In this document: one piece after another, positions 6,654 to 29,887 of the stretch | Position numbering within the stretch: the first letter of the stretch is position 1 | How the letters are laid out: the number at the start of each line of letters is the position of its first letter | Source: a virus | Lineage: Duplodnaviria; Heunggongvirae; Uroviricota; Caudoviricetes | Reading direction: 5' to 3' (one strand) | IMG/VR virus record: IMGVR_UViG_2531839178_000021 | Coordinates: 1-39,572 of that record | DNA length: 39,572 nucleotides | Made by a program: the position numbers and the translations under genes | The notes under the pieces: model-generated | The model's input: only the letters and a program-made list of their open reading frames with translations | The model's database searches: none | Told to the model about the DNA's origin: nothing

Positions 6654-6769
6654 ACATCTGATTTAATTTGTTGCATAATAGTAAAATTGCTGTTTATCTG
6701 CATGTGTTAACTATTGATAATTATGTTGCTAATAATGTGTGCAAATTTATACTGAAAAAGGTGAAAACG

Positions 6770-6922
6770 ATGAATGATATCTTTGTTCTTACAAGGGAAG
6801 AGCTTGAAACACTAGATTATAGTGTTTTTATGCATATACCAGTTACATTTCATGCACATAAAATAAAAAATATCTGGATGGGATTGCTGAATCATCAGAA
6901 AACCCCAAAGAGAAAAAATTAG
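6770..6922 (+). CDS. Cargo locus ORF segment 1 (frame 2), possibly the N-terminus of one larger gene
   Basis: ATG 6770 with AAGGTG 7 nt upstream; low-GC; frame-1 ORF opens at 6862 overlapping this segment across A6 runs (6865-6870, 6913-6918). Confidence 0.45.
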   Translation: MNDIFVLTREELETLDYSVFMHIPVTFHAHKIKNIWMGLLNHQKTPKRKN

Positions 6923-6936
6923 CATCTCTTTTTGGT

Positions 6937-7242
6937 ATGCTATATAGTTTCAATTTGCAAGTTGTTAACAACACTCCATCATTTGAACCCCAAATGATTT
7001 GGGGTAATAAAAGATCAATATTGCCTGAAGATTTTGATGAGCAGGTGAATGACTGTCTTTTATATGTTTCTCAAAAAATAACCAATCCATTTTTGTTATC
7101 AAGAATATATGATGTTGTTTGGTGTAATAATCGGAAAAATAAAGACGTGGCAATTAAAGCAATTGATTCCTATGCTGAAATGCTAAATATAGCAATTGAA
7201 AAGCTAATAATAAAAACGAAAGCATGGATGAAAGTGATTTAA
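6937..7242 (+). CDS. Cargo locus ORF segment 2 (frame 1), hypothetical
   Basis: 101-aa ORF MLYSFNLQVVNNTPSFEPQMIWGNKRS...; overlaps segment 3 by 19 nt across an A5 run (7212-7216). Confidence 0.45.
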   Translation: MLYSFNLQVVNNTPSFEPQMIWGNKRSILPEDFDEQVNDCLLYVSQKITNPFLLSRIYDVVWCNNRKNKDVAIKAIDSYAEMLNIAIEKLIIKTKAWMKVI

Positions 7243-8600
7243 ATTGCTTTATTTTTGCTCGTGATTATATTGCTAGGGCTTTGCACATTAATAAAATGGT
7301 CTACCCTAGAAAATCAGAAGGAAACATGGCGATTAAAAATGCCATTCATTCTCTTTATAGTATTCAAAATGAAAGATTAATCTTTGAAGGTTTCAATAAT
7401 TTGACTTGGTTTATGGTGCGTGATTTTGATGGGTATAATCTGCAGTATGCGGAAAATGCTGAGAAGATGGCTGAGCAGCATAAAGATAAAAAATATTATG
7501 ATGCTGTAAAATCACTTTATATGACAAGTGCAGTTATTTATGAAAAAAATGGTGAGTATGAACGTGCCAAGAGATGTAAACTGGCATCTGCAAATATTAC
7601 TATTAAAGTTGCAACAGATCGACCTGATAATATGGGTAAGATCTCTTGGTTAAGAACAGCTATCTCTGAATTAAGACAGTACGGTGGTGATAGCCAACAG
7701 ATAGAAGATTTAAAGGAACAACTTGCTAATTTGAGAGAAGAAGTAAGGAGTGAATATGTCACTTTAAGCCATTCTATTGATATTAGTGACTTGGTTGCTG
7801 AAAGTGAAAAAAAACTGACGGGGCGTTCTTTGCCCGATATATTCAAAGTTTTAATGCGTGAAACACCGATTGAAAATATTGAAAGCATGAGGGAACAAGT
7901 TTTAAGATTATCAGAAAAAAGTTTATTCTCTAGTTTTGTTGGAACAGAAATTAATGATGAGAGTGGGCGTAAGATATATACAATCCCGCCGTTGGATAAT
8001 AAAAAAGATATGAGTGATGATGTTGTTATTGATCAATATCTAAGAAATTTCGAGATTACTCATAAGATTTTTGTAAACGGTGTCTTTGAACCTGCTCGCT
8101 ATGTACTTTCTCAAGAACATGGCTTGACGTTGTCAACATTCGTTAAATTGGTTACAACTAGTCCAATTGTCAAGCCGGAGTTTAGGGAGATTTTTAATTT
8201 GGGCTTTTACAAATTATGGCAGGGAGATTACATCAGTGCAGCTTATCTTTTAATACCACAAATGGAGGGTATGGTTCGTTATTATTATGAGCTTAGTGGA
8301 AAGGATGCTACTAGATATTTGGATAAGGGATTAGAGGAGTCAACAAGTATTTCTCAGCTTCTAGATAAATGCAGAGATGATTTGGAAAGTATCTTTTCTA
8401 AAAATCTTGTTTTGACTATCGATGTTCTTTTTAACAGAAAGAGTGGGGCAACCTTAAGACATAAATTAGCACATGGTAATTTATATACTAATGCTTGTTA
8501 CGATGAAACAACGACATATGCATGCATCCTGATTTTCTTTCTGTGTGCTTATCCTCTCCTACCATATTTTGATACTGTTTTTGAACAGGGCTCTGTTTGA
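7224..8600 (+). CDS. Cargo protein, 458 aa, unknown function with C-terminal HEPN-like R-x4-H motif; candidate abortive-infection/defence effector
   Basis: low-GC ORF; motif RHKLAHG encoded at 8457-8477; coiled-coil-like EDLKEQLANLREEVRSEY; no Walker A, so not an Old-type ATPase. Confidence 0.6.
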   Translation: MDESDLNCFIFARDYIARALHINKMVYPRKSEGNMAIKNAIHSLYSIQNERLIFEGFNNLTWFMVRDFDGYNLQYAENAEKMAEQHKDKKYYDAVKSLYMTSAVIYEKNGEYERAKRCKLASANITIKVATDRPDNMGKISWLRTAISELRQYGGDSQQIEDLKEQLANLREEVRSEYVTLSHSIDISDLVAESEKKLTGRSLPDIFKVLMRETPIENIESMREQVLRLSEKSLFSSFVGTEINDESGRKIYTIPPLDNKKDMSDDVVIDQYLRNFEITHKIFVNGVFEPARYVLSQEHGLTLSTFVKLVTTSPIVKPEFREIFNLGFYKLWQGDYISAAYLLIPQMEGMVRYYYELSGKDATRYLDKGLEESTSISQLLDKCRDDLESIFSKNLVLTIDVLFNRKSGATLRHKLAHGNLYTNACYDETTTYACILIFFLCAYPLLPYFDTVFEQGSV

Positions 8601-8751
8601 TAACGTATACGTTGAGGCATAAAACCTATGCATACTTAGCTGCATCAATTTGCACGAGGTATTTCAGTATGCATTTTCTGCGTAATAGTAGGGATTGCTT
8701 GGTTTGGTAGTTGTAATTCAACTGCATTCAAACCGACCCATGAAGCGGGCG

Positions 8752-8770
8752 GGCGAGGCGGGGAAAGCAC
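8752..8770. other. cos: cos site (19-nt cohesive end sequence of P2-type phages)
   Basis: GGCGAGGCGGGGAAAGCAC matches the recalled P2 cohesive end; located between the A-side cargo and Q as expected. Confidence 0.7.
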
Positions 8771-8912
8771 TGCGCGCTGGCGGTGGTGCTGATTTTATTT
8801 TTTCAGCGTCTCAGCGCGTCGTGACGGCGCTTAGTCTGCCCGTTGGGGTGTTGGTGTGTCTGCGGGCTGTTTTGTGCTGTGGTGAGCGTGTGAGGGCGTG
8901 ATGACGGGATGT

Positions 8913-15643: not shown

Positions 15644-15925
15644 ATGACAGCAGAAGAAAAAAGCGTTCTGTCGCTTTTCATGATTGGGGTGCTGATTGTT
15701 GTCGGCAAGGTGCTTGCCGGTGGTGAACCCATCACCCCGCGTCTGTTTATCGGGCGCATGTTGCTCGGTGGTTTTGTCTCGATGGTTGCCGGTGTTGTTC
15801 TGGTGCAGTTTCCTGACCTGTCACTGCCTGCGGTGTGCGGCATTGGCTCCATGCTGGGTATCGCCGGTTATCAGGTGATTGAGATTGCCATTCAGCGCCG
15901 CTTTAAGGGCAGGGGGAAACCGTAA
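15644..15925 (+). CDS. Y: Holin Y
   Basis: 93-aa ORF with hydrophobic helices MTAEEKSVLSLFMIGVLIVVGKVLAGG...; precedes endolysin. Confidence 0.85.
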   Translation: MTAEEKSVLSLFMIGVLIVVGKVLAGGEPITPRLFIGRMLLGGFVSMVAGVVLVQFPDLSLPAVCGIGSMLGIAGYQVIEIAIQRRFKGRGKP

Positions 15926-16422
15926 TGCCGGTTATTAACACGCATCAGAATATCGCCGCCTTTCTCGACATGCTGGCCGTGTCCGAAGGGACGGCGAATC
16001 ATCCGCTGACGAAAAAACGGGGCTATGACGTGATAGTCACCGGACTGGACGGAAAGCCGGAAATTTTCACCGACTACAGTGACCACCCGTTCGCGCATGG
16101 CCGACCGGCGAAGGTGTTTAACCGTCGCGGTGAAAAATCCACGGCCTCCGGTCGCTATCAGCAGCTTTACCTGTTCTGGCCGCACTACCGCAAACAGCTT
16201 GCCCTGCCGGATTTCAGTCCGTTGTCACAGGACAGACTTGCCATTCAGTTGATCCGTGAACGCGGTGCACTGGATGACATCCGGGCGGGACGCATTGAGC
16301 GCGCCATTTCACGCTGTCGCAATATCTGGGCGTCCCTGCCGGGTGCCGGTTACGGTCAGCGTGAGCATTCACTGGAAAAACTGGTCACCGTCTGGCGTAC
16401 CGCTGGCGGCGTACCTGCTTAA
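15925..16422 (+). CDS. K: Endolysin K (lysozyme-like)
   Basis: MPVINTHQNIAAFLDMLAVSEGTANHPLTKKRGYDVIVTGLDGKPEIFTDYSDHPF. Confidence 0.85.
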   Translation: MPVINTHQNIAAFLDMLAVSEGTANHPLTKKRGYDVIVTGLDGKPEIFTDYSDHPFAHGRPAKVFNRRGEKSTASGRYQQLYLFWPHYRKQLALPDFSPLSQDRLAIQLIRERGALDDIRAGRIERAISRCRNIWASLPGAGYGQREHSLEKLVTVWRTAGGVPA

Positions 16423-16436
16423 ACGGAGTAAACACC

Positions 16437-16862
16437 ATGAAGAAATTATCCCTTTCACTGATGCTGAACGTGTCGCTGGCGCTGATGCTGGCACTGTCCC
16501 TGATTTACCCGCAGAGCGTGGCCGTCAATTTTGTCGCCGCCTGGGCGATTCTGGCGACGGTTATCTGTGTGGTTGCCGGTGGTATCGGCGTGTATGCCAC
16601 TGAGTATGTACTGGAACTCTACGGGCGGGAGCTGCCGCCGGAATCGCTGGCCGTGAAGATTGTCACGTCGCTGTTTTTGCAGCCGGTGCCGTGGCGCAGA
16701 CGGGCGGCGGCTCTGGTTGTGATGGTGGCGACATTTATCTCGCTGGTCGCTGCCGGGTGGATTTTTACCGCGCTGATTTATCTCGTAGCGTCGCTGTTTT
16801 TCCGGCTGATACGCACGGCCTGCCGTCAGCGTCTTGAGGGGCGGGAACCATGTCAAGGCTGA
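16437..16862 (+). CDS. lysA: Lysis regulatory membrane protein LysA
   Basis: 141-aa multi-TM ORF following K. Confidence 0.75.
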   Translation: MKKLSLSLMLNVSLALMLALSLIYPQSVAVNFVAAWAILATVICVVAGGIGVYATEYVLELYGRELPPESLAVKIVTSLFLQPVPWRRRAAALVVMVATFISLVAAGWIFTALIYLVASLFFRLIRTACRQRLEGREPCQG

Positions 16863-17275
16863 TGATTGTACTGATTGTGTTGTTATCGCTGGCGGTGGCG
16901 GGTCTGTTTCTGGTGAAACACAAAAATGCCAGCCTGCGCGCTTCGCTGGACAGGGCGAACAGCGTCGCCAGCGGGCAGCAGACGACCATCACCATGCTGA
17001 AAAATCAGCTTCATGTTGCGCTCACCAGGGCAGAAAAAAACGAGCTGGCGCAGGTGGCACTGCGTCAGGAACTGGAAAACGCCGCGAAGCGTGAAGCACA
17101 GCGCGAGAAAACCATCACGAGGTTACTCAATGAAAACGAAGATTTTCGCCGCTGGTACGGTGCTGACCTGCCTGATGCTGTGCGCCGGTTGCACCAGCGT
17201 CCGGCCTGCACCGACGCCAGTGATTGTCGCCAACGCCTGCCCGAAAGTGAGTCTTTGCCCGATGCCGGGCAGTGA
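16850..17275 (+). CDS. lysB: LysB (Rz-like inner-membrane spanin)
   Basis: N-terminal TM MSRLMIVLIVLLSLAVAGLFLV followed by coiled-coil region. Confidence 0.75.
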   Translation: MSRLMIVLIVLLSLAVAGLFLVKHKNASLRASLDRANSVASGQQTTITMLKNQLHVALTRAEKNELAQVALRQELENAAKREAQREKTITRLLNENEDFRRWYGADLPDAVRRLHQRPACTDASDCRQRLPESESLPDAGQ

Positions 17276-17420
17276 CCCGCAGACGAACGGCGATTTAAGT
17301 GCTGATATCAGGCAGCTTGAGAACGCGCTGGCACGCTGTGCCAGCCAGGTAAAAATGATTAAACACTGTCAGGACGAAAACGATGCTCAAACCCGACAGC
17401 CTGTGCAGGGCGTTGACTGA
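17130..17420 (+). CDS. lysC: LysC (Rz1-like outer-membrane lipoprotein spanin), overlapping lysB in another frame
   Basis: MKTKIFAAGTVLTCLMLCAGC lipoprotein signal with lipobox; Pro-rich mature part. Confidence 0.7.
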   Translation: MKTKIFAAGTVLTCLMLCAGCTSVRPAPTPVIVANACPKVSLCPMPGSDPQTNGDLSADIRQLENALARCASQVKMIKHCQDENDAQTRQPVQGVD

Positions 17421-17850
17421 TGCCGTCACGGTGCTGAAAACTAACCCCGATATGCTGCGGATATTCGTGGATAACGGGAGTATTGCCTCCACACTGGCGA
17501 CGTCGCTGTCGTTCGAAAAGCGTTACACGCTCAATGTGATTGTGACCGACTTTACCGGTGATTTTGACCTGCTCATCGTGCCGGTGCTGGCGTGGCTGCG
17601 GGAAAATCAGCCCGACATCATGACCACCGACGAAGGCCAGAAAAAGGGCTTCACGTTTTATGCAGACATCAACAATGACAGCAGCTTTGATATAAGCATC
17701 AGCCTGATGCTGACCGAGCGCACGCTGGTCAGTGAGGTGGACGGCGCGCTGCATGTGAAGAATATCCCTGAACCTCCGCCGCCGGAGCCGGTTACCCGCC
17801 CGGTGGAGCTTTATATCAATGGCGAACTGGTGAGCAAGTGGGATGAATGA
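17383..17850 (+). CDS. R: Tail completion protein R
   Basis: 155-aa ORF MLKPDSLCRALTDAVTVLKTNPDMLRIFVDNGSIAS. Confidence 0.8.
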   Translation: MLKPDSLCRALTDAVTVLKTNPDMLRIFVDNGSIASTLATSLSFEKRYTLNVIVTDFTGDFDLLIVPVLAWLRENQPDIMTTDEGQKKGFTFYADINNDSSFDISISLMLTERTLVSEVDGALHVKNIPEPPPPEPVTRPVELYINGELVSKWDE

Positions 17851-18294
17851 GTTTAAGCGTTTTGAAGACCGGCTGGCCGGACTGACTGAATCGCTGTCAC
17901 CGTCAGGGCGTCGGCGACTGAGCGCCGAACTGGCGAAACGTCTGCGTCAGAGTCAGCAGCGTCGGGTGATGGCACAGAAAGCCCCGGACGGCACACCCTA
18001 CGCGCCACGTCAGCAGCAGAGCGCCAGAAAAAGACCGGTCGCGTTAAGCGAAAAATGTTTGCGAAACTTATCACCAGTCGTTTTTTGCATATCCGCGCCA
18101 GCCCGGAACAGGCATCAATGGAGTTTTACGGCGGGAAGTCACCGAAAATCGCCAGTGTGCATCAGTTCGGTCTGTCGGAAGAAAACCGGAAAGACGGTAA
18201 GAAAATTGATTATCCGGCGCGTCCTCTGCTCGGCTTTACCGGTGAGGATGTGCAGATGATTGAAGAGATTATCCTGGCTCACCTGAATCGTTAG
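17843..18294 (+). pseudogene. S: Tail completion protein S, frame-broken at an A5 run (18028-18032)
   Basis: ORF 17843-18259 (MNEFKRFEDRLAGLTESLSPSGRRRLSAELAKRLRQSQQ...SARK) shifts to ORF 18055-18294 (MFAKLITSRFLHIRASPEQ...ILAHLNR) by a 1-nt deletion-type break. Confidence 0.75.
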
Positions 18295-18497
18295 CTTTAA
18301 TCATCTGAGAATATAAGATAGAAATCAATTGATTAGCATAATTTATTTTGAATTTTCATGTTAATAAATAAAAGGCCAGTTATTGGCCTTTTATCATTAC
18401 TTTCCATTTTTTAATGAATTGATTAACGATGCTATTTGCTCAATGCCATCAAATGTAGATGGTATCTTATCATCGGATAGCATGATGTTTGAAAATA

Positions 18498-18815
18498 CTA
18501 CGTCTTCGAATTTTGAAAGCGCTTCCGGATTGTTTTTCTTATCTCTGAGGAATAGTCGCTATAACTCTGAATGAACTGACAAAGGCTCTTTTTGAGTTCT
18601 ATTTGCATAATCTGAGTTCGTAACGATATATGATTTAGCAGTACAACTCTAAAGTAATACATGAAAATCAATGTAACTGATGCAAAAGGTAGTGCTGACA
18701 TAAAATATGTGGCAGCATTTGTCGTTTCGAGAGCTGGTAATTTATGCATTCCATAGTATATCAGCGGGGAGGGAATGATTATAGCCAAGATGATAAGAAT
18801 TATTCTTGATAGCAT
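18498..18815 (-). CDS. Small membrane protein (two predicted TM helices), cargo, unknown function
   Basis: 105-aa low-GC ORF MLSRIILIILAIIIPSPLIYYGM...ATYFMSALPFASVTLIFMYYFRVVLL; downstream of and co-oriented with the 18902-19468 gene. Confidence 0.55.
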   Translation of the reverse strand: MLSRIILIILAIIIPSPLIYYGMHKLPALETTNAATYFMSALPFASVTLIFMYYFRVVLLNHISLRTQIMQIELKKSLCQFIQSYSDYSSEIRKTIRKRFQNSKT

Positions 18816-18901
18816 GATTGCACTTTCTTTTTTTTGCCAAGTGAATTAAAGCCTTCAAACAATCCAACAAAATTAAATGCGACCTCATACCCTTTTAATG
18901 A

Positions 18902-19468
18902 CTATTTGATTGACTCTATTTTGGTATGTTGCTCCTTTAAGAAGGAGTCGCACTTTTCGAAAAATTGACGCCCTTCGTTTAAACTATCAATGTATTTTTT
19001 ATATGTGTCAACATTGCTGGAGCTTAAAACTTCTTTAACCATTGCTAATGGCAGTTCTCTAAGAGAAAAGTCTATCTGTGCTCTGCTCCGCTCATCGAAT
19101 TCATTATAGTTATACAGAGCAAAATCCTTGATGGTTCTTAGTGGTGAAAAGTGAGACTCTATTTCCGGAGAGAGAATGCTTGGTTCAATGATAAATCTAA
19201 AAAAGCAAGTGAATATAAGGTTGATGCTGTTGTTATCTTCTCCCTTTTCTCTTAAGAAACTTTTAAAGGTGTCGCCAATCATAGCAATGTTGTGCTGGGA
19301 TTTTTTGTCCCAATCTTCAGGGTTTTCGGAAATGAAGTTTATTGCTTGAGCAATTATTTTGTTTCTGTTTGATTCAAAGTTTGTGCCGGGAGTCAGCGTG
19401 TTCAAAAAGACCAGATAATCTTTGAACAATTCTTTCATTGTTTCTGACGAGAAAAAGTAAGTACTCAT
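18902..19468 (-). CDS. Hypothetical cargo protein (~188 aa), unknown function
   Basis: low-GC ORF on the strand opposite to the tail genes, inserted between S and V; start taken at ATG 19468 (MSTYFFSSETMKELF); the longer ORF to 19564 uses GTG and overlaps the V start. Confidence 0.5.
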   Translation of the reverse strand: MSTYFFSSETMKELFKDYLVFLNTLTPGTNFESNRNKIIAQAINFISENPEDWDKKSQHNIAMIGDTFKSFLREKGEDNNSINLIFTCFFRFIIEPSILSPEIESHFSPLRTIKDFALYNYNEFDERSRAQIDFSLRELPLAMVKEVLSSSNVDTYKKYIDSLNEGRQFFEKCDSFLKEQHTKIESIK

Positions 19469-19554
19469 AATGGATTTTGTTGTCCCTTGTTGTTCTGTGC
19501 ACCAGAAATCGTGGTGTGATTTACTTCGAGATTGTACAGAATCATTATTATCGA

Positions 19555-20184
19555 ATGAATGCACAATACAATGAAATTCTTCGCTTTATACGCAATATGA
19601 TTCGCACTGGCATTATTGTCGAAACCGACCTTAATGCCGGTCGCTGCCGTGTGCAGACCGGCGGCATGTGCACCGACTGGCTTCAGTGGCTGACCCATCG
19701 CGCCGGACGTTCGCGCACATGGTGGGCACCTTCCGTGGGGGAACAGGTGCTGATTCTGGCCGTGGGCGGTGAACTCGACACGGCGTTCGTTCTGCCGGGG
19801 ATTTATTCCTGCGATAACCCCGCGCCGTCTGCGTCGGCGGATGCCCTGCATATCCGTTTCCCTGACGGGGCGGTGATTGAGTATGAACCCGAAACCAGTG
19901 CACTCACGGTAAGCGGAATTAAAACGGCCAGCGTGACGGCTTCTGATTCTGTTACTGCCACGGTGCCGGTGGTCATGGTGAAAGCGTCAACCCGCATCAC
20001 CCTGGACACCCCGGAGGTGGTCTGCACCAACAGACTGATTACCGGCACGCTGGAAGTGCAGAAGGGCGGGACGATGCGCGGCAACATTAAACATACCGGC
20101 GGTGAACTCTCATCAAACGGTAAGGTACTGCATACCCATAAACACCCCAGCGACAGCGGCGGCACAACCGGGAGTCCTCTATGA
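19555..20184 (+). CDS. V: Baseplate spike protein V
   Basis: MNAQYNEILRFIRNMIRTGIIVETDLNAGRCRVQTGGMCTDWLQWL. Confidence 0.85.
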   Translation: MNAQYNEILRFIRNMIRTGIIVETDLNAGRCRVQTGGMCTDWLQWLTHRAGRSRTWWAPSVGEQVLILAVGGELDTAFVLPGIYSCDNPAPSASADALHIRFPDGAVIEYEPETSALTVSGIKTASVTASDSVTATVPVVMVKASTRITLDTPEVVCTNRLITGTLEVQKGGTMRGNIKHTGGELSSNGKVLHTHKHPSDSGGTTGSPL

Positions 20185-20528
20185 CAGCGCGTTATCTTGG
20201 AATGAATCGCAGTGATGGCCTGACGGTCACTGACCTTGAGCATATCAGCCAGAGTATCGGCGATATCCTGCGCACACCGGTCGGCTCACGGGTGATGCGT
20301 CGTGATTACGGCTCGTTGCTGGCGTCAATGATTGACCAGCCGCAGACCCCGGCGCTTGAGTTGCAGATTAAGGTCGCCTGTTACATGGCGGTGCTGAAAT
20401 GGGAACCCCGCGTCACCCTGTCATCCGTCACCACGGCGCGCAGCTTTGATGGGCGAATGACGGTCACGTTAACCGGCCAGCACAACGACACCGGCCAGCC
20501 ACTTTCGTTAACCATCCCTGTGAGTTGA
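20181..20528 (+). CDS. W: Baseplate protein W
   Basis: 115-aa ORF MTARYLGMNRSDGLTVTDLEHISQSIGDILRTPVGSRVMRRDYGS. Confidence 0.85.
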   Translation: MTARYLGMNRSDGLTVTDLEHISQSIGDILRTPVGSRVMRRDYGSLLASMIDQPQTPALELQIKVACYMAVLKWEPRVTLSSVTTARSFDGRMTVTLTGQHNDTGQPLSLTIPVS

Positions 20529-20532
20529 AACC

Positions 20533-21441
20533 ATGCCGATTATCGACCTGAACCAGCTACCCGCACCGGATGTGGTCGAGGAGCTGGACTTTGAAACCAT
20601 TCTCGCCGAACGCAAGGCGACACTGATTTCCCTTTACCCGGAAGACCAGCAGGAGGCGGTCGCCCGTCCCCTGACGCTGGAATCTGAGCCTCTCGTCAAA
20701 CTGCTGGAGGAAAATGCTTATCGTGAGCTTATCTGGCGTCAGCGTGTGAATGAGGCCGCACGGGCGGTGATGCTGGCCTGTGCCGCCGGTAATGACCTTG
20801 ATGTGATTGGTGCCAATTACAACACCACGCGTCTGACTATCACCCCGGCAGATGATTCGACTATCCCGCCGACACCGGCAGTGATGGAGTCTGACACGGA
20901 TTATCGTCTGCGTATTCAGCAGGCGTTTGAAGGCTTAAGCGTCGCCGGGTCGGTGGGAGCCTATCAGTATCATGGTCGCAGTGCTGACGGGCGTGTCGCG
21001 GATATCTCTGTCACCAGTCCGTCTCCGGCCTGCGTCACTATCTCCGTGCTGTCACGTGAAAATAACGGCGTCGCATCCGAAGACCTGCTGGCCGTGGTGC
21101 GTAACGCCCTTAATGGCGAGGACGTCAGGCCGGTGGCCGACCGCGTGACCGTGCAGTCTGCCGCCATTGTTGAATATCAGATAAACGCCACACTTTACCT
21201 TTACCCAGGTCCCGAAAGCGAACCCATCCGCGCTGCTGCCGTGAAAAAACTGGAAGCGTACATCACGGCACAGCACCGGCTGGGGCGTGACATCCGTCTG
21301 TCTGCCATTTATGCCGCTTTGCATGTGGAAGGCGTGCAGCGTGTCGAACTGACTGCACCGCTGGCTGACATCGTGCTCAACAGTACGCAGGCGTCTTTCT
21401 GTACTGAATACCGCGTCGTGACCGGAGGCTCGGATGAGTGA
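20533..21441 (+). CDS. J: Baseplate protein J
   Basis: 302-aa ORF MPIIDLNQLPAPDVVEELDFETILAERKATLISLYPEDQQ. Confidence 0.85.
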   Translation: MPIIDLNQLPAPDVVEELDFETILAERKATLISLYPEDQQEAVARPLTLESEPLVKLLEENAYRELIWRQRVNEAARAVMLACAAGNDLDVIGANYNTTRLTITPADDSTIPPTPAVMESDTDYRLRIQQAFEGLSVAGSVGAYQYHGRSADGRVADISVTSPSPACVTISVLSRENNGVASEDLLAVVRNALNGEDVRPVADRVTVQSAAIVEYQINATLYLYPGPESEPIRAAAVKKLEAYITAQHRLGRDIRLSAIYAALHVEGVQRVELTAPLADIVLNSTQASFCTEYRVVTGGSDE

Positions 21442-21964
21442 TTCGCGACTGCTGCCGACCGGCTCATCACCGCTTGAAGTCGCCGCCGCAAAAGCCTGTG
21501 CGGAAATTGAAAAAACACCGGTCAGTATTCGTGAGCTGTGGAACCCGGACACCTGCCCGGCAAATCTGCTGCCGTGGCTGGCGTGGGCGTTTTCGGTCGA
21601 CAGGTGGGATGAAAAGTGGCCGGAAGCGACCAAACGCGCCGTTATTCGCGATGCCTATTTCATCCACTGTCATAAAGGCACTATAGGTGCAATCCGGCGT
21701 GTGGTGGAGCCGCTAGGCTATCTCATCAACGTGACGGAGTGGTGGGAAACCAGTGACCCGCCGGGCACCTTCCGGCTTGATATTGGTGTACTGGAAAGTG
21801 GCATCACAGAGGCAATGTATCAGGAAATGGAACGGCTGATTGCTGATGCCAAACCTGCAAGCCGCCACCTTATTGGCCTGAACATTACCCGGGACATTCC
21901 CGGCTACCTGTTCGCCGGTGGTGTGGCTTATGACGGCGATGTAATTACGGTTTACCCCGGATAA
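21434..21964 (+). CDS. I: Baseplate protein I
   Basis: 176-aa ORF, start overlaps J stop. Confidence 0.8.
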   Translation: MSDSRLLPTGSSPLEVAAAKACAEIEKTPVSIRELWNPDTCPANLLPWLAWAFSVDRWDEKWPEATKRAVIRDAYFIHCHKGTIGAIRRVVEPLGYLINVTEWWETSDPPGTFRLDIGVLESGITEAMYQEMERLIADAKPASRHLIGLNITRDIPGYLFAGGVAYDGDVITVYPG

Positions 21965-22496
21965 GTGAGGAATAATGAGCACAAAATTCAGAACCGTTAT
22001 CACCACTGCCGGTGCAGCAAAGCTGGCAGCGGCAACCGCACCGGGAGGGCGGAAGGTCAACATTACCACGATGGCCGTCGGGGATGGCGGTGGTAAATTG
22101 CCTGTCCCGGATGCCGGACAGACCGGGCTTATCCATGAAGTCTGGCGACATGCGCTGAACAAAATCAGCCAGGACAAACGAAACAGTAATTATATTATCG
22201 CAGAGCTGGTTATTCCGCCGGAGGTGGGCGGTTTCTGGATGCGTGAGCTTGGCCTGTACGATGATGCGGGAACGTTAATTGCCGTGGCGAACATGGCCGA
22301 AAGTTATAAGCCAGCTCTTGCCGAAGGCTCAGGGCGTTCGCAGACCTGCCGTATGGTCATCATCGTCAGCAGTGTGGCCTCAGTGGAGCTGACCATTGAC
22401 ACCACAACGGTGATGGCGACGCAGGATTACGTTGATGACAAAATTGCAGAGCACGAACAGTCACGACGTCACCCGGACGCCTCGCTGACCGCAAAA

Positions 22497-22860
22497 GGTT
22501 TTACTCAGTTAAGCAGTGCGACCAACAGCATGTCTGAAACACTGGCTGCAACGCCGAGAGCGGTAAAGACCGCCTATGACCTTGCTAACGGGAAATATAC
22601 CGCGCAGGATGCCACCACCGCGCGAAAAGGCCTTGTTCAGCTCAGTAGTGCGACTAACAGCACGTCTGAAACGCTCGCCGCAACGCCGAAAGCGGTAAAG
22701 GCAGCATATGACCTTGCTAACGGGAAATACACTGCACAGGATGCCACAACAGCGCGAAAAGGCCTTGTTCAGCTCAGTAGCGCCACCAACAGTGATTCTG
22801 AAACGCAGGCTGCAACGCCAAAGGCGGTGAAGTCTGCCTATGACAATGCTGAAAAACGTC
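22497..22860 (+). repeat. Tandem 132-bp (44-codon) coding repeat, ~2.75 copies, inside tail fibre gene H
   Basis: units starting 22497, 22629, 22761: LSSATNS-SETLAATPKAVKAAYDLANGKYTAQDATTARKGLVQ. Confidence 0.8.
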
Positions 22861-22931
22861 TTCAGAAAGATCAGAACGGTGCGGATATCCCTGATAAAGA
22901 ACGCTTCCTGAGTAACATTAGGCTGTGTCCC

Positions 22932-23444
22932 TTAATTACGTAAGCGTTGATAAAAGAGTCGGATGCAGCCCAGTTTCACCATCGCCAGGTAATTTCTCGC
23001 CGTTTTGTCGTAACGCGTGGCGATGCGGCGATATTCTTTCAGCCGCCCAAAGCACCGTTCAACGACATTACGATTGCAGTACGCATCACGATCAAGCTGT
23101 GCACGTCCATCCGATGCCATTTTCTCATTTGACTTTCGGGGGATTACTGCCTTTATACCGTTATTTTTCAGCTCGTTGCGCAATGCGCGCCCTGAATACG
23201 CTTTATCAGCCAGTACCGCATGTCCACGGCGTTTCATGCTGCCGTTCTGACGCTGAACGCCAATCCCGTCCAGAAGTCGTTGCGCGAACTGGCTTTCATG
23301 AGCTTGTCCGGGGCTTAGCACGATATTTAACGGGAGGCCACTTCCGTCTGTTGCCAGATGGATTTTGGTGCCAAAACCGCCGCGAGAGCGACCCAGCCCA
23401 TTATCTCCGTCGATATCGGGATGTTTTTTGAGCACCGGCGGCAC
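22932..23444 (-). CDS. IS transposase OrfB (copy 2)
   Basis: same protein as 2569-3084 apart from the N-terminal residues at the A-run. Confidence 0.75.
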   Translation of the reverse strand: MPPVLKKHPDIDGDNGLGRSRGGFGTKIHLATDGSGLPLNIVLSPGQAHESQFAQRLLDGIGVQRQNGSMKRRGHAVLADKAYSGRALRNELKNNGIKAVIPRKSNEKMASDGRAQLDRDAYCNRNVVERCFGRLKEYRRIATRYDKTARNYLAMVKLGCIRLFYQRLRN

Positions 23445-23775
23445 ATTTCAGCGCCCGGATATTACTGCCATCCAGCGCGGTGGCAGACCAGTCAATAAAG
23501 CCGTTTGCATCAAGTAGCGAAAGCAACCTGTTGAAAATAATATTAATCACGCCTGACTTTGACCATCGGTTAAAGCGGTTATAAACAGTTTTCCATGACC
23601 CATATCGTTCGGGTAAATCGCGCCATGGTGCACCGGAACATAACACCCAGAACATGCCATTGATGATTTTACGGTGCTCAGCCCATGGGCGTCCGGCCCG
23701 TGGTGTGGCGGGTTCAGGAGGTAACAGGGGCTTGATGATGGTCCATGCCTCATCGGGAAGGTCGTAGCGAGCCAT
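23401..23775 (-). CDS. IS transposase OrfA (copy 2); with A6 the OrfB frame is +1 rather than -1
   Basis: MARYDLPDEAWTIIKPLLPP...AQKTSRYRRR stop. Confidence 0.7.
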   Translation of the reverse strand: MARYDLPDEAWTIIKPLLPPEPATPRAGRPWAEHRKIINGMFWVLCSGAPWRDLPERYGSWKTVYNRFNRWSKSGVINIIFNRLLSLLDANGFIDWSATALDGSNIRALKCAAGAQKTSRYRRR

Positions 23776-24682
23776 AGTTCAATATGTTGTGTAAACAGAC
23801 AGTTACTATAGCTCAGATGATTAAGGGACACAGCCTAGTGTTTTTTATGTTGAAGCCAGAGCTTTCCCTGTACAAATTCTTGCAGAGGAAGGGCTAACGG
23901 TTATTGTTCCGACAGAGGATTATGTCGTCGGTCAAACGACATATAAGTGGGGGGCAACTAATCCCGCTACAGAAAGCACGAACGCACAGGCTATTCTGGA
24001 TTTTAAAAATGGACGTGGTTATTACTGTTCACATCCATTTATTTCCAGCCTTTCAGGAAATGCTGCAACAGCAACGAAGTTAGCGAACGCAAGAAATATT
24101 AATGGTGTCAGATTTGATGGCTCTGCCGATATAAATATTAATACACTGGTATCCAGAAACCGTGTTACTGCATTAGGTGGGAGCGTAAAGGGGACACCAG
24201 GTATTCAGATGTATGAGGCATACAACAATGGCTACCCAACAGCCTATGGTAATGTGCTTCATCTCACTGGCGTAACCGCAGTAGGAGAGGGTGAGTTACT
24301 TATTGGTTGGAGTGGAACCAGCGGTGCTCATGCTCCGGCATATATTCGTTCCCGACGAGATACCACAGATGCTAACTGGTCTGGATGGGCGCAACTATAT
24401 ACAACTGCTCATAAACCCTCAGCGGGAGATGTTGGTGCATACACCAAAACTGAGTCAGATTCACGTTATGTGAGAGACATGCGGCTGGGCGGTGCATCTA
24501 CATATAAACCAGCAAATAATGGTACTACATGGACGCATCAGGCTCCGTCAGGTTGCGTATATACCGGCATTATTGTTCAGGATACCGGCTCAAACTCTGC
24601 CGATAACATTGGTGGCGTATATTACAGACCGGTGCAGAAATACATTAACGGGACATGGTATAACGTGGTGCAGGTATAATTT

Positions 24683-25210
24683 ATGCAGCATTTAAAAAAT
24701 ATTACGGCGGGTAATCCAAAAACGGTTGAACAATATCAATTGACAAAGGACTTTGATGTTGTCTGGTTTTTTTCAGAAGATGGTAAGAACTGGTACGAAG
24801 AACAAAAGTATTTTGCTGATGACACGATAAAAATAGCGTACGACAAAGATAATATCATCCACTATGTGGAAAAGGATGTGACAGCTATCAGACCGGATGG
24901 ATTAAGTGTTGTTGAAGTGGCGGATATTACTGCTAACCGACGGGCGGACATTTCAGGGAACTGGATGTTTAAGGACGGCAAAGTGATTAAACGCGTTTAT
25001 ACGGCAGAGGAATTACAGCAGCAGGCAGAAATTCGGAAAGCCAGACTTCTTGCAGATGCTGAATCCGTGATTTTGCCGCTGGAGCGCGCGGTCAGACTGA
25101 ACATGGCAACAGATGAGGAGCGTAGCCGACTGGAATCATGGGAACGCTACAGCGTTCTGGTCAGTCGTGTGGATCCTGCAAATCCTGAATGGCCGGAAAT
25201 GCCGCAATAA
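24683..25210 (+). CDS. G: Tail fibre assembly chaperone G
   Basis: 175-aa [44 protein letters not shown] immediately after H. Confidence 0.85.
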
Positions 25211-25259
25211 GTTGTATTAGCTTACATATCTATGGCACAGAGTAAAGCCTAATCTGACA

Positions 25260-25298
25260 GTCCGCTCTGTGCCAGGAGCAGACATTGCCAACGTTATG
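25260..25298 (+). repeat. ~39-bp direct repeat, copy A (partner at 27932-27970)
   Basis: gtccgctctgtgccaggagcagacattgccaacgttatga versus gttcgctttgtgccaggagcggacgttgccagcattgag, ~85 percent identity. Confidence 0.7.
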
Positions 25299-25677
25299 AC
25301 CCTCGATTACATCAAAGAGCCCTATAGCCGAAACCTGCACCATAGCCATCTCTGTAGAATTCGTCCTAGGGGCTTTTAACAGACCTAGTTGTATGGATCG
25401 GAAGGAAATATTAAAGCTCAAGGCGTCAGTCCAGTGCTGTCCTGTTTGCTTACCACACGAAAGAGTGCTGCTTGTACCTGCTAACTAATGGTATGCGGAG
25501 TGAGGGGGGCGGGTAGAACCAAAAGCACTTACTACGTGTGGCGCTCTCCTGGAAGAGGAGACGTCGAAGTGATAACGCTAACAACAGTCTTACTGGTGAT
25601 GCAAATAATGCTAGCTGGTCTGGTTGCCATCAAGCAACTGACCGGACGCCCGTAAGGGATGGAGGAACTTGATTAAA

Positions 25678-25707
25678 GGCAGGGGGGTTACCTCCCCTGC
25701 CTTTTTC
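25678..25707 (+). terminator. Strong rho-independent terminator
   Basis: GGCAGGGG-ggttacct-CCCCTGCC followed by TTTTT; lies ~470 nt downstream of G stop with no ORF of 60 aa or more between. Confidence 0.75.
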
Positions 25708-25769
25708 GTTTCTGCGCAAGTTAGCTCTGTTATTATAATCCTTACTCACACTGTAAGGACATAGTTCAA

Positions 25770-26033
25770 ATGACTGAATGGCTTAATGCACATTTTGGTG
25801 CAGACGCAGCTACCTATCTTAGCTTATTAGTCGGCGTACTGGCACTGTTTGGTATTGGGGGCGGTGTTACATATAGAATCAGACAGCAAAACAACATAAA
25901 ACAGAAGGCAAAGAAAACCGAGGGTGATGTGAACCAGGCCGGGCGGGATATTAATCAGACCACCAACGTTTACCACACATCCAATGAATCTACTGAGGAC
26001 CCTGTAAAAAAAAGCAAGATGAACATGATCTGA
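25770..26033 (+). CDS. Membrane-anchored hypothetical protein, N-terminal segment (single TM helix)
   Basis: TATAAT at 25734-25739; MTEWLNAHFGADAATYLSLLVGVLALFGIGGGV; ORF ends just after an A8 run (26006-26013) where the next ORF's frame opens. Confidence 0.55.
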   Translation: MTEWLNAHFGADAATYLSLLVGVLALFGIGGGVTYRIRQQNNIKQKAKKTEGDVNQAGRDINQTTNVYHTSNESTEDPVKKSKMNMI

Positions 26034-26056
26034 AGATAATCGACCAGATCCTTGAA

Positions 26057-26452
26057 TTGCTGCCTTATGAGGATACTACTCAATGGGTTGAGCAGAGCTA
26101 CCTGAGCGGTATACGGCAAGATGTTTGCTTAAACATTGAAAAAGCTGAAAAATTTAGCGGTGAAAAGTATCGGTTATTCAATACTGAAGTGAATGGTGCG
26201 AAAGACGCTTTTTTGGACGCTATGACCGCATACGTAGATAGTACGCTACCATTTATGAGTGTTGATTACCCGAACAGAAAGCCAGTGATGCTAAGCCTTC
26301 CCCATGACTGGAAGAGTAAGAGTGTTGAATCGGAGGCAAACTTCCGCTTTCATCAGCAAAATGTGCGTGAAACATCGGGGGGGATGATTGCGCGCTATGA
26401 GGATTTTGTCAGGACATTTAAGGCTCATGGATTCATAAGCGATAAACTGTAA
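26057..26452 (+). CDS. Hypothetical protein segment lacking an ATG start; probably the C-terminal part of one ~227-aa gene 25770-26452 broken by a 1-nt deletion
   Basis: frame open from 25997; ORF-track start is TTG; frame offset from 25770 is of deletion type. Confidence 0.5.
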   Translation: MLPYEDTTQWVEQSYLSGIRQDVCLNIEKAEKFSGEKYRLFNTEVNGAKDAFLDAMTAYVDSTLPFMSVDYPNRKPVMLSLPHDWKSKSVESEANFRFHQQNVRETSGGMIARYEDFVRTFKAHGFISDKL

Positions 26453-26545
26453 AGGCGCAGTGGGTCAGCGAACACCGCAACGACAGAACCGCGTAAGCGG
26501 TAAAATCAGCTTGTTAACTGGCGAGTTTATAGCCGTCCCTCCGGG

Positions 26546-27846
26546 CTGAGGGATCCCCACAAAATTACTGCTAATAAACCAGTACCATATTTCGGTAGGT
26601 TCTGGACAGATGGTTTAGAACTGTGCTCAGTACTGTTCGTCTTAAAATAAGTGGCGAGTGTCGAAGAACATTCTTCGCTAACGTCAGATATGAGATAACC
26701 CGCCGGGATTTAATGCTGTTAGCCTGATATTTCAGGTGTAACCCTTTATTTTCAGCGTGATAACCGAGTAACCACATTACGATAGTGCTCAACGTTGCCA
26801 GCAGACTCAGAACCAGAATTCTTCCTGTTGAACGACTTTTGCTGGCCCGAAGACCAAATCCGAAGCGCCCGTTCTTTTCATCACGAAAGTTTTGCTCTAT
26901 CTGCATTCGCCGACTGTATAACTTGATGATTTCTCGCGCTCTGAAGTCATTTGTACTGCTGAAGATCAACCAGGCTTCTTTTGCTGATTTGCTCTGTTCT
27001 TTGTCTGTTTTGTTTAAACCACTCTGACCTTTCGAACGTTTCTTTTTTCGCCCTTTTGCCGATTTCTTATAGGTGTAAAAATGCCCCCGGATGCTTTTTT
27101 TCCTTTCTTTAACCAGCCTTCCAGCCCCCATATATTCCGGTGTTTTACATTCAGGGCTATCCGACACTTTTAACCATCTTTCAGGCGCGTTATCGAGGCA
27201 ATACTGAACGTTATTTCTGATCCGACCAATAAAATCCCAGCCCAGAGAAGTAATATGGTGAAACCATGCGCTCTGAAATCCAGCATCCGTGACAATAATA
27301 ACCCTGGCATCGGGGGGCAGGGATTGAGCAAGGGAATCAAGGAAATCATGTTGTATCAATGGATTATTTTGTTTTTCAGAAGGAACAACCTTACTCAATA
27401 ACGGAATGGAACGCCCGTCACACAGAAGGCTGGCACGAAGAACATGATGCTCCTGGGAGGGATAGCCACTCCAGTCTACGGCTATTACACATAAAGATAA
27501 CTGCCGTGTCAGCATTGAAGTGATATTCCTGAAAATCATTGGAATATCGCGATGGAGCGCCTCATTACCCATGAGGCGATCAATACGTTTGCTCTTATTC
27601 TTAACTTGTGCATTACCCGGGAAAAAACGTCCGATACTGGTCAGCGTCAGAGATGCTCCGTTGATTAACGCCACTGTGGCATCCATCAGGGCATTTTGTC
27701 GGTACTGATGAAATGGTGCTAAGGCATCCCGGAAGAAATTCTGACATACTTTATGAACAGGCATAGCAGTGATCTCATTGAATTGTTGGCACAAATCAGT
27801 AGATCACATAATGCTATGTCTGTCTCGTTTTCTGGGAATTCCTCAG
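26546..27846 (-). mobile_element. IS10-like (IS4-family) insertion sequence, ~1.3 kb, with 9-bp target-site duplication CCCTCCGGG
   Basis: ends CTGAGGGATCCCC (26546-) and its reverse complement (-27846); identical 9-mers at 26537-26545 and 27847-27855. Confidence 0.8.
26571..27764 (-). CDS. IS10-like transposase (~397 aa)
   Basis: KRIDRLMGN, VDWS, VLRAS, TDAGFQSAWF, SLGW, SKGRKKKRS, SAKEAW, IKLYSRRMQIEQNFRD, FGLRAS: motifs shared with the IS10 transposase. Confidence 0.8.
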   Translation of the reverse strand: MPVHKVCQNFFRDALAPFHQYRQNALMDATVALINGASLTLTSIGRFFPGNAQVKNKSKRIDRLMGNEALHRDIPMIFRNITSMLTRQLSLCVIAVDWSGYPSQEHHVLRASLLCDGRSIPLLSKVVPSEKQNNPLIQHDFLDSLAQSLPPDARVIIVTDAGFQSAWFHHITSLGWDFIGRIRNNVQYCLDNAPERWLKVSDSPECKTPEYMGAGRLVKERKKSIRGHFYTYKKSAKGRKKKRSKGQSGLNKTDKEQSKSAKEAWLIFSSTNDFRAREIIKLYSRRMQIEQNFRDEKNGRFGFGLRASKSRSTGRILVLSLLATLSTIVMWLLGYHAENKGLHLKYQANSIKSRRVISYLTLAKNVLRHSPLILRRTVLSTVLNHLSRTYRNMVLVY

Positions 27847-27931
27847 CCCTCCGGGGCGGCTTTTTTATGACTATAATCGACAGAATCACCTGAACGTCCA
27901 GGTGGGTTTCCCTGACAGGACGTCAAGGAAT

Positions 27932-27970
27932 GTTCGCTTTGTGCCAGGAGCGGACGTTGCCAGCATTGAG
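27932..27970 (+). repeat. ~39-bp direct repeat, copy B (partner at 25260-25298)
   Basis: see copy A. Confidence 0.7.
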
Positions 27971-28116
27971 TTTTCAGTTTTCAAAGGTATATCTTTAGAT
28001 TTAGTTCACTTAGAATGAGCGTGTTAAAGTTTTCGGTTATGTGAGTATATTGAACATAACAAATAAACAATAATTTTTGTATTCCATTTAGGATATAAAA
28101 AAGAGGGATTTGAGTT

Positions 28117-28902
28117 ATGTACGATTATAGTTTTTTACTTACTCCATCTACAGGATTTGTTAAAGGATTATGTGGAGTTTGGTCGAATGATTTCTCTATA
28201 AATGATGATTCTGACTCTGATTTAGGGCAAACAGATATTCATTTACTTTCATCTCCTCATTTGAATATCATATCCGACCCAAATGAATTGGCTTCCAAGT
28301 TAAAAGGTTTGTTGATGCTCATGAACGGCGCACTTAGCGTTCTTTATGGTTTTGAAAGATATCAATCTTTTGGTCCTCTTTCTATTTCTGGAAGTGAAGG
28401 CATTAATTACTCGGAAATATGCGGCTTTAAATCAATGGATGTAACTCAGGTAAACCCCTTTAATTTCCATGACATACAGCAACCACACCCTCGCGCTGAT
28501 AATTTTTCACGATTAATTAATTTATCATCTAAACATGAATCCTTACGTGTTGTTTTAGGTATGTGTGCCTTAGGTTATGATTGGGTTAATCTTTATCGTT
28601 TGTGGGAAACAATTAGAGAATATGTATATGATAAATATGTGAAAGGTATACTAAATTTCCCCGACGCTTATAAAGGCAAGAAATATCAGAGAGATAAAGT
28701 AATTAGCATGGCTTTTAATATTGATGAAAAGGAAATCAGCAGATTCACGGGCACTGCTAATAGCTTTGAACTGTTAGGGTATCTTGCGAGACATGGAAAG
28801 GGAAGTTCCGGAGGGATATTAAAAAATCCGATGTCAAGAGTTGACGCAAGCATTTTCGTACACAAAGCAACTTACAAATATTGTAAGTTATTTTTGATGT
28901 AA
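28117..28902 (+). CDS. Hypothetical cargo protein (261 aa), unknown function
   Basis: low-GC ORF with AAGAGGGA RBS; no recognisable motif. Confidence 0.6.
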   Translation: MYDYSFLLTPSTGFVKGLCGVWSNDFSINDDSDSDLGQTDIHLLSSPHLNIISDPNELASKLKGLLMLMNGALSVLYGFERYQSFGPLSISGSEGINYSEICGFKSMDVTQVNPFNFHDIQQPHPRADNFSRLINLSSKHESLRVVLGMCALGYDWVNLYRLWETIREYVYDKYVKGILNFPDAYKGKKYQRDKVISMAFNIDEKEISRFTGTANSFELLGYLARHGKGSSGGILKNPMSRVDASIFVHKATYKYCKLFLM

Positions 28903-29004
28903 GTAAAAAGTTGAAGCTATAATACTCAAAGTATCGAAAACTACGTTCGTCGTGCACTCGAAAACAATATGCTTATTGTGTCTGCACTAATTACTCAAGG
29001 TCCG

Positions 29005-29041
29005 AGAAAAATGGCGAAGCTCATCTTTTTCAGGCTTCGCC
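29005..29041 (-). terminator. Hairpin terminator between the convergent genes 28117-28902 and 29064-29816
   Basis: GGCGAAGC-13 nt loop-GCTTCGCC; on the minus strand followed by ATTTTT. Confidence 0.5.
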
Positions 29042-29063
29042 AACTTGAGTTATTGGTTAAAAT

Positions 29064-29816
29064 TCATTTAGGAATAATAGAATGCAATTCGTGACTCACC
29101 TGGATTTCATAGTGTTTCAATAGTTCTCCGATGTTAATTCCTACTACCTTACGAACTGCGCCGAGGGAGAAGTTAAGCTCCTCAATGCCCGGCCGATCTG
29201 GCGTTGAATTCATATAGTGTCGGCACGCACGGACAATTGACTCGACGATCAACGATAGCGGAGACTCAGGTGCAATCTCGGAGCGAATCGCCGTAAGAGA
29301 GAGTCGGAGCTCCTTCAAAGAATCCGAGACTCGTGCTGGATCCTCTTGAGCATATGGCAGATAAAGAGAACTCTTGTCTTCCAATAAATGGATCAACCGC
29401 AGAGCAATTTTCTCGTCTGGGCGATGCGATAGAAATTGAAACATTAGCCTCTTTCCTCCCTCCAAGCACTCCTTCATTAGTGATTCGTGGTCACGTTTCC
29501 ATTTTCGCAAATACTCGGCGGGGTAGCCCATACCGCCATTCTTATCAACTAAATCAGCACAAGCTCCGCACAACCATATAGCATTTTTTATGCTCTTCCG
29601 CTCTGTTTCTGACTGAGACATGTCATAGCGCGGTCCGCCAGGGCTCGCCGCGCAGATATGCGCCGCCTCACCCGTCTTGATAGAAAGATTTTCCGCCAAT
29701 TGATCCGGGCCGATTGTTACCCTATGACAAGAGGGATTGCTACAAATATATGTAGCGCGCTCTGCTACCTTACCTACAACGCTTGGAGGAAAGTTGTGCC
29801 TATTTGTCTTGGTCAT
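29064..29816 (-). CDS. Hypothetical protein with N-terminal Cys/His cluster resembling an HNH/His-Me-finger nuclease motif
   Basis: YICSNPSCH ... AAHICAASPGG ... NAIWLCGACADLVD; mid-GC; the IS630 copy lies ~70 bp upstream of its start. Confidence 0.45.
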   Translation of the reverse strand: MTKTNRHNFPPSVVGKVAERATYICSNPSCHRVTIGPDQLAENLSIKTGEAAHICAASPGGPRYDMSQSETERKSIKNAIWLCGACADLVDKNGGMGYPAEYLRKWKRDHESLMKECLEGGKRLMFQFLSHRPDEKIALRLIHLLEDKSSLYLPYAQEDPARVSDSLKELRLSLTAIRSEIAPESPLSLIVESIVRACRHYMNSTPDRPGIEELNFSLGAVRKVVGINIGELLKHYEIQVSHELHSIIPK

Positions 29817-29887
29817 AAAAGTTATGCTTCTTTGTTTTTTTCATCTATGTGGGGAGAATAAAATCATACTTTTTATATCTGATCCTA

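Follow-up and report, generated by a model that had tools for sequence, protein, structure and literature searches.

We analyzed a 39,572-nt stretch of viral DNA (IMG/VR record IMGVR_UViG_2531839178_000021), referred to here as the window, and examined the interval at positions 18295-19554, which lies between the P2-like tail genes S and V. In a P2-like prophage, this interval is very probably the variable "orf30" slot, and it holds an AT-rich accessory gene ("moron") that was acquired horizontally and lies on the opposite strand. The two open reading frames (ORFs) found in the interval are, with high confidence, pieces of a single accessory gene of this slot that was pseudogenized by a nonsense codon and two frameshifts. 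The copy in the window is almost certainly inactivated, and it no longer performs the function of its family, whatever that function is.

The disrupted accessory gene

The two ORFs are co-oriented on the minus strand, at 18902-19468 (188 aa from the ATG) and at 18498-18815 (105 aa, with two hydrophobic segments). The interval was compared with 5,426 complete E. coli genomes by megablast. It was present in 60 of them, always on the chromosome and with a query coverage of at least 80%. The closest loci were 99.4% identical to the interval, measured 1267 bp compared with 1265 bp in the window, and had a single hypothetical protein annotated between S and V. Base-by-base alignment and three-frame translation showed that the intact gene in these close loci is 1074 nt long and encodes 357 aa. 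Thirty listed E. coli copies, spanning the range of identity, aligned over the full 1074 nt without indels, each annotated as one hypothetical protein. An intact allele is present, for example, in E. coli CFSAN051542 (NZ_CP020835.1, 3105248-3106321). The fragments in the window were approximately 98% identical to the intact E. coli allele.

The pseudogene as a whole (18397-19468, minus strand) is a disrupted copy of the 357-aa accessory gene, of the phrog_9373 family and similar to WP_000661081.1, and it is collinear with the intact coding sequence in five E. coli loci. At codon 189 (18902-18904), GAG was changed to TAG. A first 1-nt deletion removed one G from AAGGAAAG (GG to G, near 18830, codon ~213), and a second removed one G from AAGGAAAAAC (near 18538, codon ~311). 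These three changes give rise to the 188-aa and 105-aa ORFs. Fragment A (18902-19468) corresponds to intact residues 1-188, comprising the N-terminal cytosolic helical domain and the start of a stalk, and ends at the TAG. By alignment, it is followed by an untranslated remnant of codons 190-218 (18816-18901), which contains the first deletion; the conserved AFNFVGL motif (codons ~198-204) sits in the gap between the two ORFs. Fragment B (18498-18815) starts at the internal Met219, comprises two transmembrane (TM) helices and the juxtamembrane helix, and reaches an early stop past the second deletion. The last 47 codons (18397-18537), located by frame-0 translation and the conservation profile, encode the most conserved tail (NNPEALSKFEDVVFSNIMLSDDKIPSTFDGIEQIASLINSLKNGK*) and are out of frame. 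Four missense changes (Y59H, A182T, E217A, and R293K) were specific to the window relative to two close E. coli alleles. Counting E189*, the window had five specific substitutions; each of them altered the protein and none was synonymous. R293, which is Lys in fragment B, was invariant in an alignment of 47 family sequences.

The interruptions could in principle be errors of sequencing or assembly in a gene that is intact in the organism. Both deletions in the accessory gene drop one base of a CC pair beside a T-run on the plus strand, which is an indel-prone context, and a 1-nt deletion in S (near 18027, relative to two E. coli loci) also lies in a run of A. However, the nonsense change is a substitution and not an indel, and the truncated allele was also found elsewhere. 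The exact 188-aa product was present on 11 Logan contigs, and the product of fragment A read from its second Met was identical to Shigella boydii WP_000661080.1. S. dysenteriae proteins, on 39 contigs, had the stop and Y59H in common with the window and carried extra changes. That every lineage-specific substitution alters the protein, and that insertion sequences (IS) have entered the prophage elsewhere, also argues for genuine damage. Error is a highly improbable source of these interruptions.

Since the E189* allele is shared with S. boydii and S. dysenteriae, the window is most likely from Shigella. Other Shigella and E. coli entries were cut at different positions, leaving 137, 191/201, and 211 aa. 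Truncation at differing positions indicates independent inactivations and repeated loss of the gene. If the family is an anti-phage system, the repeated truncations would reflect either relaxed selection on the gene or its cost.

The surrounding prophage is decaying: S is frameshifted and the tail-fibre gene H is cut, with IS-type ORFs nearby. The tail completion gene S (17843-18294, plus strand), which forms the left border of the insert, is split into ORFs at 17843-18259 and 18055-18294. S is essential in P2, and the prophage is probably defective. H stops early, at 322 aa, and ORFs for IS4/IS5-type and other transposases lie downstream. Within 21975-31300, the window contains a DUF4096 IS4/5 ORF (23401-23775), a DDE_Tnp_1 ORF (26571-27794), and an IS630-like helix-turn-helix ORF (30200-30940). 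The G-FI (Z/fun) region of the window is heavily rearranged.

The first-pass annotation of this DNA had described two genes, of about 188 and 105 aa, and had likened their order, first a cytosolic protein and then a small membrane protein, to the layout of many abortive-infection (Abi) or toxin modules. In the listed E. coli relatives, the supposed pair is one 1074-nt ORF, which is split here by the stop and the frameshifts, and the layout is an artefact of the pseudogenization of one polypeptide. A two-component toxin/antitoxin or Abi module was rejected, since no conserved gene pair was found: the listed E. coli genomes, and nearly all of the homologues listed, have one ORF. A working module of a 188-aa cytosolic and a 105-aa two-TM protein is hardly credible: both ORFs are present, co-oriented, and AT-rich, the second has two hydrophobic helices, and gene fission can in principle yield working split systems, but the split arises from a stop and a frameshift in a gene that is single in E. 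coli carriers and in hundreds of homologues, the 86-nt inter-ORF remnant with its AFNFVGL motif is no longer translated, and the 105-aa ORF carries R293K at an invariant position and is without the most conserved C-terminal 47 residues. Moreover, upstream of the 105-aa ATG, the AAGGAAAG stretch became AAGAAAG through the deletion, and the exact 105-aa product had no match in a collection of 15 billion proteins. Annotating or pursuing the locus in the window as a two-component system is unwarranted, and in this respect the result is a correction.

The S-V slot and its control region

The G+C content (GC) of the interval was 0.342, compared with 0.566 on the left (15925-18294, 2.4 kb) and 0.567 on the right (19591-22943, 3.4 kb). 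Comparably AT-rich DNA occurred in only one other stretch of the window, at approximately 6.0-8.9 kb. The interval begins one base past the S stop codon (18292-18294) and ends one base before the ATG of V (19555). These values and exact borders bore out the earlier description of an AT-rich insert between S and V with its ORFs on the opposite strand. The DNA is foreign and lies outside the tail operon.

In an alignment with P2, homology to the window ended 5 nt past the S stop and restarted at about V codon 13 (near 19590). The baseplate spike gene V occupies 19555-20184 on the plus strand, and the start annotated by PGAP in a close E. coli locus maps to 19555. V residues 1 to ~12 (19555 to ~19590) were unlike those of P2 V and form part of the exchanged module. 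Since P2 homology is absent over this whole stretch, the unit that is exchanged comprises a terminator, the cargo gene, the control region of the late promoter P_V, and the first ~12 codons of V, which travel together. The terminator-like element is a hairpin with A/T runs on both sides (ATAAAAGGCCAGTTATTGGCCTTTTAT, 18368-18394), and P2 has an annotated terminator at the equivalent place after S. From its sequence, the hairpin is a probable bidirectional terminator that would serve the S operon on the plus strand and the accessory gene on the minus strand.

The start codons of the accessory gene and V are separated by an 86-bp divergent control region (19469-19554), which was aligned to P2 10239-10266. 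It contains a TGTTGT element that matches the annotated activator site (Ogr-type) of P_V in P2 and lies within ~25 nt of the ATG of the cargo gene. The element, ACAAC(A)/TGTTGT, was conserved in eight loci across genera; otherwise, only the V start was conserved in the alignment of upstream regions. With only 86 bp between the start codons, any promoter of the accessory gene would have to overlap P_V or the 5' end of V. The first-pass annotation had stated that the promoter region overlaps the V start. The confinement of any promoter to this place holds, and a sigma-70 scan identified none there.

The same slot of P2 contains orf30, at the same position and on the same strand, which is annotated as nonessential, with a terminator after S and the P_V activator site before V. 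A previous report named orf30, Z/fun, and the right-end TO region as three sites of horizontally acquired genes in P2-like phages (PMC3091744). Phage R18C has a different ORF of 741 bp in the S-V slot (PMC6823313), and in phage D8 the slot is empty, with S and V 66 bp apart. Since the slot is empty in the viable D8 and holds other genes in P2 and R18C, the gene is accessory and dispensable for P2-like phages.

Homology between the intact protein and P2 Orf30 (NP_046770.1) was rejected; BLASTP gave an E value of 1.6, and the proteins belong to different families (phrog_9373 and phrog_2407, respectively). P2 Orf30 shares the slot, the opposite-strand orientation, and the nonessential annotation. 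It differs in length (261 aa versus 357 aa) and in the size of its family (5 clusters versus more than 900). The phrog_9373/WP_000661081.1 type resembles the window in position, strand, flanks, and DNA sequence (99.4% identity), and differs in that the window copy is inactivated.

The intact protein family

The intact E. coli protein matched the phrog_9373 profile end to end (E value 1.9e-133, residues 13-346 of 347). The window copy belongs to this family through its intact allele and is itself without an uninterrupted ORF of ~355 aa. Homologues formed 345 clusters in a word-indexed search. An exhaustive profile search gave 923 clusters at 50% identity, with E values below 1e-30 for 671 of them. 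The listed homologues were nearly all single chains of 350-375 aa with end-to-end matches. The ratio of nonsynonymous to synonymous substitution (dN/dS) was 0.14-0.16 between alleles differing by ~8% in DNA (92% identical). Together with the indel-free copies, a dN/dS of about 0.15 marks the intact gene as a genuine gene under purifying selection. RefSeq starts were inconsistent, giving either 347 or 357 aa. Since F6 was invariant in the 47-sequence alignment, the longer form is supported, and translation would start at the upstream ATG (19468); the PGAP start of the 347-aa form appears to be too far downstream. The family is already catalogued as phrog_9373 and as RefSeq hypothetical proteins, and the window adds only a pseudogenized member to it. 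A literature search for WP_000661081 and phrog_9373 found no papers.

P2-like prophages of Citrobacter, Kosakonia, Yersinia, and Pectobacterium carried homologues at 37-50% identity in the S-V slot, again on the opposite strand. Homologues were found at the S-V position in P2-like phages of Erwinia as well, and the isolated Yersinia phages vB_YenM_31.17 and 06.16-2 carry homologues. In IMG/VR, 69 of 80 loci of the family were flanked by both S and V, and a further six by one of them. In a set of species-representative genomes, the S-V slot accounted for only 5 of 80 loci, and the remaining loci belonged to Gamma- and Betaproteobacteria, Campylobacterota, Desulfobacterota, Nitrospirota, and Bacteroidota. 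A distant member (24% identity, hhalign probability 99.5%) was a lone opposite-strand gene among the replication genes of the Klebsiella phage-plasmid pJN2-26. The GC of the gene was 0.30-0.37 in Enterobacterales loci, compared with 0.46-0.61 in the flanks, and among 78 loci from many phyla, nearly all had a gene GC lower than that of the flanks.

Hydropathy analysis of the intact protein located hydrophobic segments at residues ~217-242 and ~252-278, with GKKK before them and an R/K-rich helix after them. Given these K/R flanks and the positive-inside rule, both termini are predicted to be cytoplasmic, and the segments would form a two-helix hairpin in the inner membrane with an outside loop of ~10-15 residues. 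AlphaFold2 with 47 homologues gave an all-helical model with a mean predicted local distance difference test score (pLDDT) of 78.8. The model has a compact seven-helix N-domain (residues 9-149, pLDDT ~90 or higher), a long helix running from the cytosol into TM1 (152-231), a second long helix leading from TM2 back to the cytosol (252-313), and a tail of low confidence (330-357). The 188-aa N-fragment modelled alone was all-helical, with a pLDDT of 89.4.

Conservation ran opposite to model confidence. The mean pairwise identity was 0.30 for residues 1-150, compared with 0.52 for residues 216-357. Near-invariant blocks were AFNFVGL-GF, TM2 with the next helix (YYFR...QIELRK-LC-FIQ-Y), and the tail (KFE..IFSNIM....K.PSTFDG); N199, F200, R293, and P337-G342 were among the invariant residues. 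Some members had 20-40 extra residues in the stalk before AFNFVGL, made of tandem W..L.EK...V..L units. Compared with a close E. coli locus, the allele of E. coli TUM14771 was a mosaic: synonymous divergence (dS) was 0.18 in the N-domain and only 0.01-0.03 elsewhere. This indicates that intragenic recombination swapped only the N-domain. These sequence and model features suggest a protein made of a fast-evolving, recombining N-domain, a stalk of variable length, and a conserved part comprising TM2, the juxtamembrane helix, and the tail (PSTFDG). When the full-length AlphaFold2 model was searched against PDB and BFVD with Foldseek, there was no match at an E value of 0.001 or below, and only long-helix proteins were matched. 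In a profile search of PDB sequences, no E value fell below 0.35.

We also examined the genes around family members. No recurrent partner gene was found among 144 immediate neighbours, and when 278 neighbours of 78 loci were clustered, the only synteny among the clusters was specific to single lineages (V/S/W in Enterobacterales, hisB/hisH in Pasteurellaceae, and msbA with a sensor kinase in Beggiatoa-like genomes). By Pfam, the 144 immediate neighbours were mostly housekeeping or phage genes, with few integrases and few defence-type genes. The defence-type neighbours were GmrSD/HEC-06, a dGTPase, an AAA_15/AAA_21 ATPase, and a SLATT_3+SLATT_1 protein, with putAbiC two genes away in one island. 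PADLOC matches among the neighbours were few, and some of these (mad3, mad8) may be generic matches to neighbouring histidine kinases. These results suggest a self-sufficient cargo of one gene, which is found among defence genes at times but not as a rule.

In six Pasteurellaceae species, the homologue was directly downstream of hisB (IGPD) on the same strand, and in some of them a GATase (hisH-like) gene came next; here, the histidine operon has received a single AT-rich gene. In a proteobacterial metagenome-assembled genome (13071-nt locus), a homologue with 35% identity was located in an island whose flanks were as low in GC as the gene. The island contained a D5_N primase, two resolvase-type recombinases, a DUF6338 protein, and a putAbiC protein, and it may be closer to the source pool of the family.

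Possible functions of the intact protein

The intact gene is dispensable, foreign, partner-less, and terminated on its own within a cargo slot of phages, and its product is a predicted membrane-anchored protein with a variable, recombining N-domain and a conserved membrane module and tail. As the best fit to these features, we propose, tentatively, that the intact protein is a stand-alone anti-phage factor expressed from the prophage. It would exclude other phages or abort their infection, and it would work without a partner gene. The variable N-domain may sense a component of the invading phage. The conserved membrane hairpin and tail would then be the effector, acting by membrane permeabilization or by blocking a membrane-associated step. 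It is possible, although doubtful, that the intact family as a whole is a new, widespread single-protein anti-phage system in which a helical sensor triggers a two-TM effector.

Several findings weigh against an anti-phage function. No homology to a characterized protein links the family to phage defence. The intact protein matched none of the PADLOC-DB 2.0 families at an E value of 1 or below. Pfam searches with both ORFs of the window and the intact protein, and NCBIfam searches with the intact protein, returned only sub-threshold noise (e.g., DUF3810, TrbE, and OmpH). When 62 family members were searched singly against Pfam, no Pfam family was common to more than 3 of the 62, and the matches were noise. 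Positive selection was not seen in the N-domain (dN/dS 0.16-0.39), and selection was purifying in the tested allele pairs. Defence-like neighbours were a minority, and many loci lay between housekeeping genes, such as hisB and hisH in Pasteurellaceae. Evidence for a promoter was weak, as sigma-70-like matches upstream of the accessory gene were no commoner than in shuffled sequence. A periplasmic loop of only ~10-15 residues also argues against a surface interaction of the classical, injection-blocking kind.

The same observations leave room for a membrane protein of host physiology or lysogenic conversion, such as a modulator of stress, transport, or the envelope, or for a selfish, addiction-type cargo. 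The wide non-phage distribution, often as a lone gene between housekeeping genes, is consistent with this, as are the missing PADLOC match, the scarcity of defence neighbours, and the purifying selection along the whole protein. We consider this main alternative unlikely, though it retains real weight. Persistent AT-richness, location in variable slots of phages, and presence on a phage-plasmid fit conflict cargo better. The same applies to the pairing of a variable N-domain with a conserved membrane module, to the intragenic exchange of the N-domain, and to the occasional Abi, SLATT, and GmrSD neighbours. None of these points is decisive.

A role in morphogenesis or lysis needed by the P2-like phage is very improbable. 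The gene lay between S and V in 69 of the 80 viral-contig loci, and this position was kept across several genera, but it is on the strand opposite to the late operons, is separated from S by the terminator hairpin, is absent from D8, is replaced by the unrelated nonessential Orf30 in P2 and by another ORF in R18C, is common at non-phage chromosomal sites, and has a GC far below that of the backbone. Nor does the gene fit a P2 holin or lysis-accessory gene: it runs on the opposite strand, its place is downstream of R and S and not in Y-K-lysABC, and its GC is 0.34 versus 0.57. The first-pass annotation had allowed that homologues might be conserved structural or lysis genes of P2-like phages with the GC of the backbone. 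Conservation at the S-V position was indeed found; however, the homologues are AT-rich and absent from the viable D8, which argues for an accessory and not a structural gene.

The anti-phage proposal was also compared with known membrane proteins of this kind. Two-TM effectors of conflict systems, including SLATT domains and the 2TM effectors of CBASS and retrons, were reportedly described by Burroughs et al. in 2015 and in later work. The family resembles them in its membrane hairpin with a conserved cytosolic helix, its variable cytosolic domain, and its occurrence as AT-rich mobile cargo. One homologue adjoins a true SLATT_3+SLATT_1 protein. Homology to SLATT was rejected at the sensitivity of hhalign (probability 0.4% against this SLATT_3+SLATT_1 protein). 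The SLATT_1-6/DUF4231 profiles matched neither the intact protein at an E value of 1 or below nor the 62 family members at 0.1 or below. The resemblance to SLATT is architectural only.

T4 Imm, P22 SieA and SieB, and HK97 gp15 are inner-membrane proteins of phages or prophages that act alone on incoming phages. They are small and mostly embedded in the membrane or facing the periplasm. In contrast, approximately 85% of the mass of the present family is predicted to be cytoplasmic, the periplasmic loop is ~10-15 residues, and no sequence match to these superinfection-exclusion proteins was found.

The old/tin genes near cos and the Z/fun genes between G and FI are likewise cargo, inserted into the P2 backbone at fixed variable points. 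These genes occupy other loci, are not homologous to the family described here, and match PADLOC models, whereas the protein of this family does not. Anti-phage activity has been shown for genes of the cos-proximal and Z/fun hotspots of P2 (PMC9122126, PMC9519451). A 2026 preprint (10.64898/2026.02.27.708500) reports more defence hotspots within P2's late genes; the portion of its text considered here does not describe the protein of this family.

Further cargo was observed in the window. A second AT-rich island, at 6000-8900 with a GC down to 0.32, is located just upstream of the portal gene Q, which is the classic cos-proximal defence hotspot of P2. A 458-aa ORF in this island (7224-8600, plus strand) matched the PADLOC candidate PDC-S39 (E value 9e-71) over profile positions 141-583 of 595. 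Because the match covers only this part of the profile, the ORF may be truncated at its N-terminus. In the G-FI region, a 250-aa ORF (29064-29816, minus strand) matched models of HNH-endonuclease effectors (PDC-M68A, E value 7e-24). It also matched the CBASS-type "Effector Endonuclease" and SAVED_HNH models.

The intact family is large and uncharacterized, has a clean and reproducible architecture, is partner-less and AT-rich, and has a fixed cargo address in P2-like phages, which makes the ~1.1-kb gene a candidate for phage challenge. If the anti-phage proposal is true, the S-V slot would be a third defence hotspot of P2-like phages, and the family would represent a new type of membrane effector.

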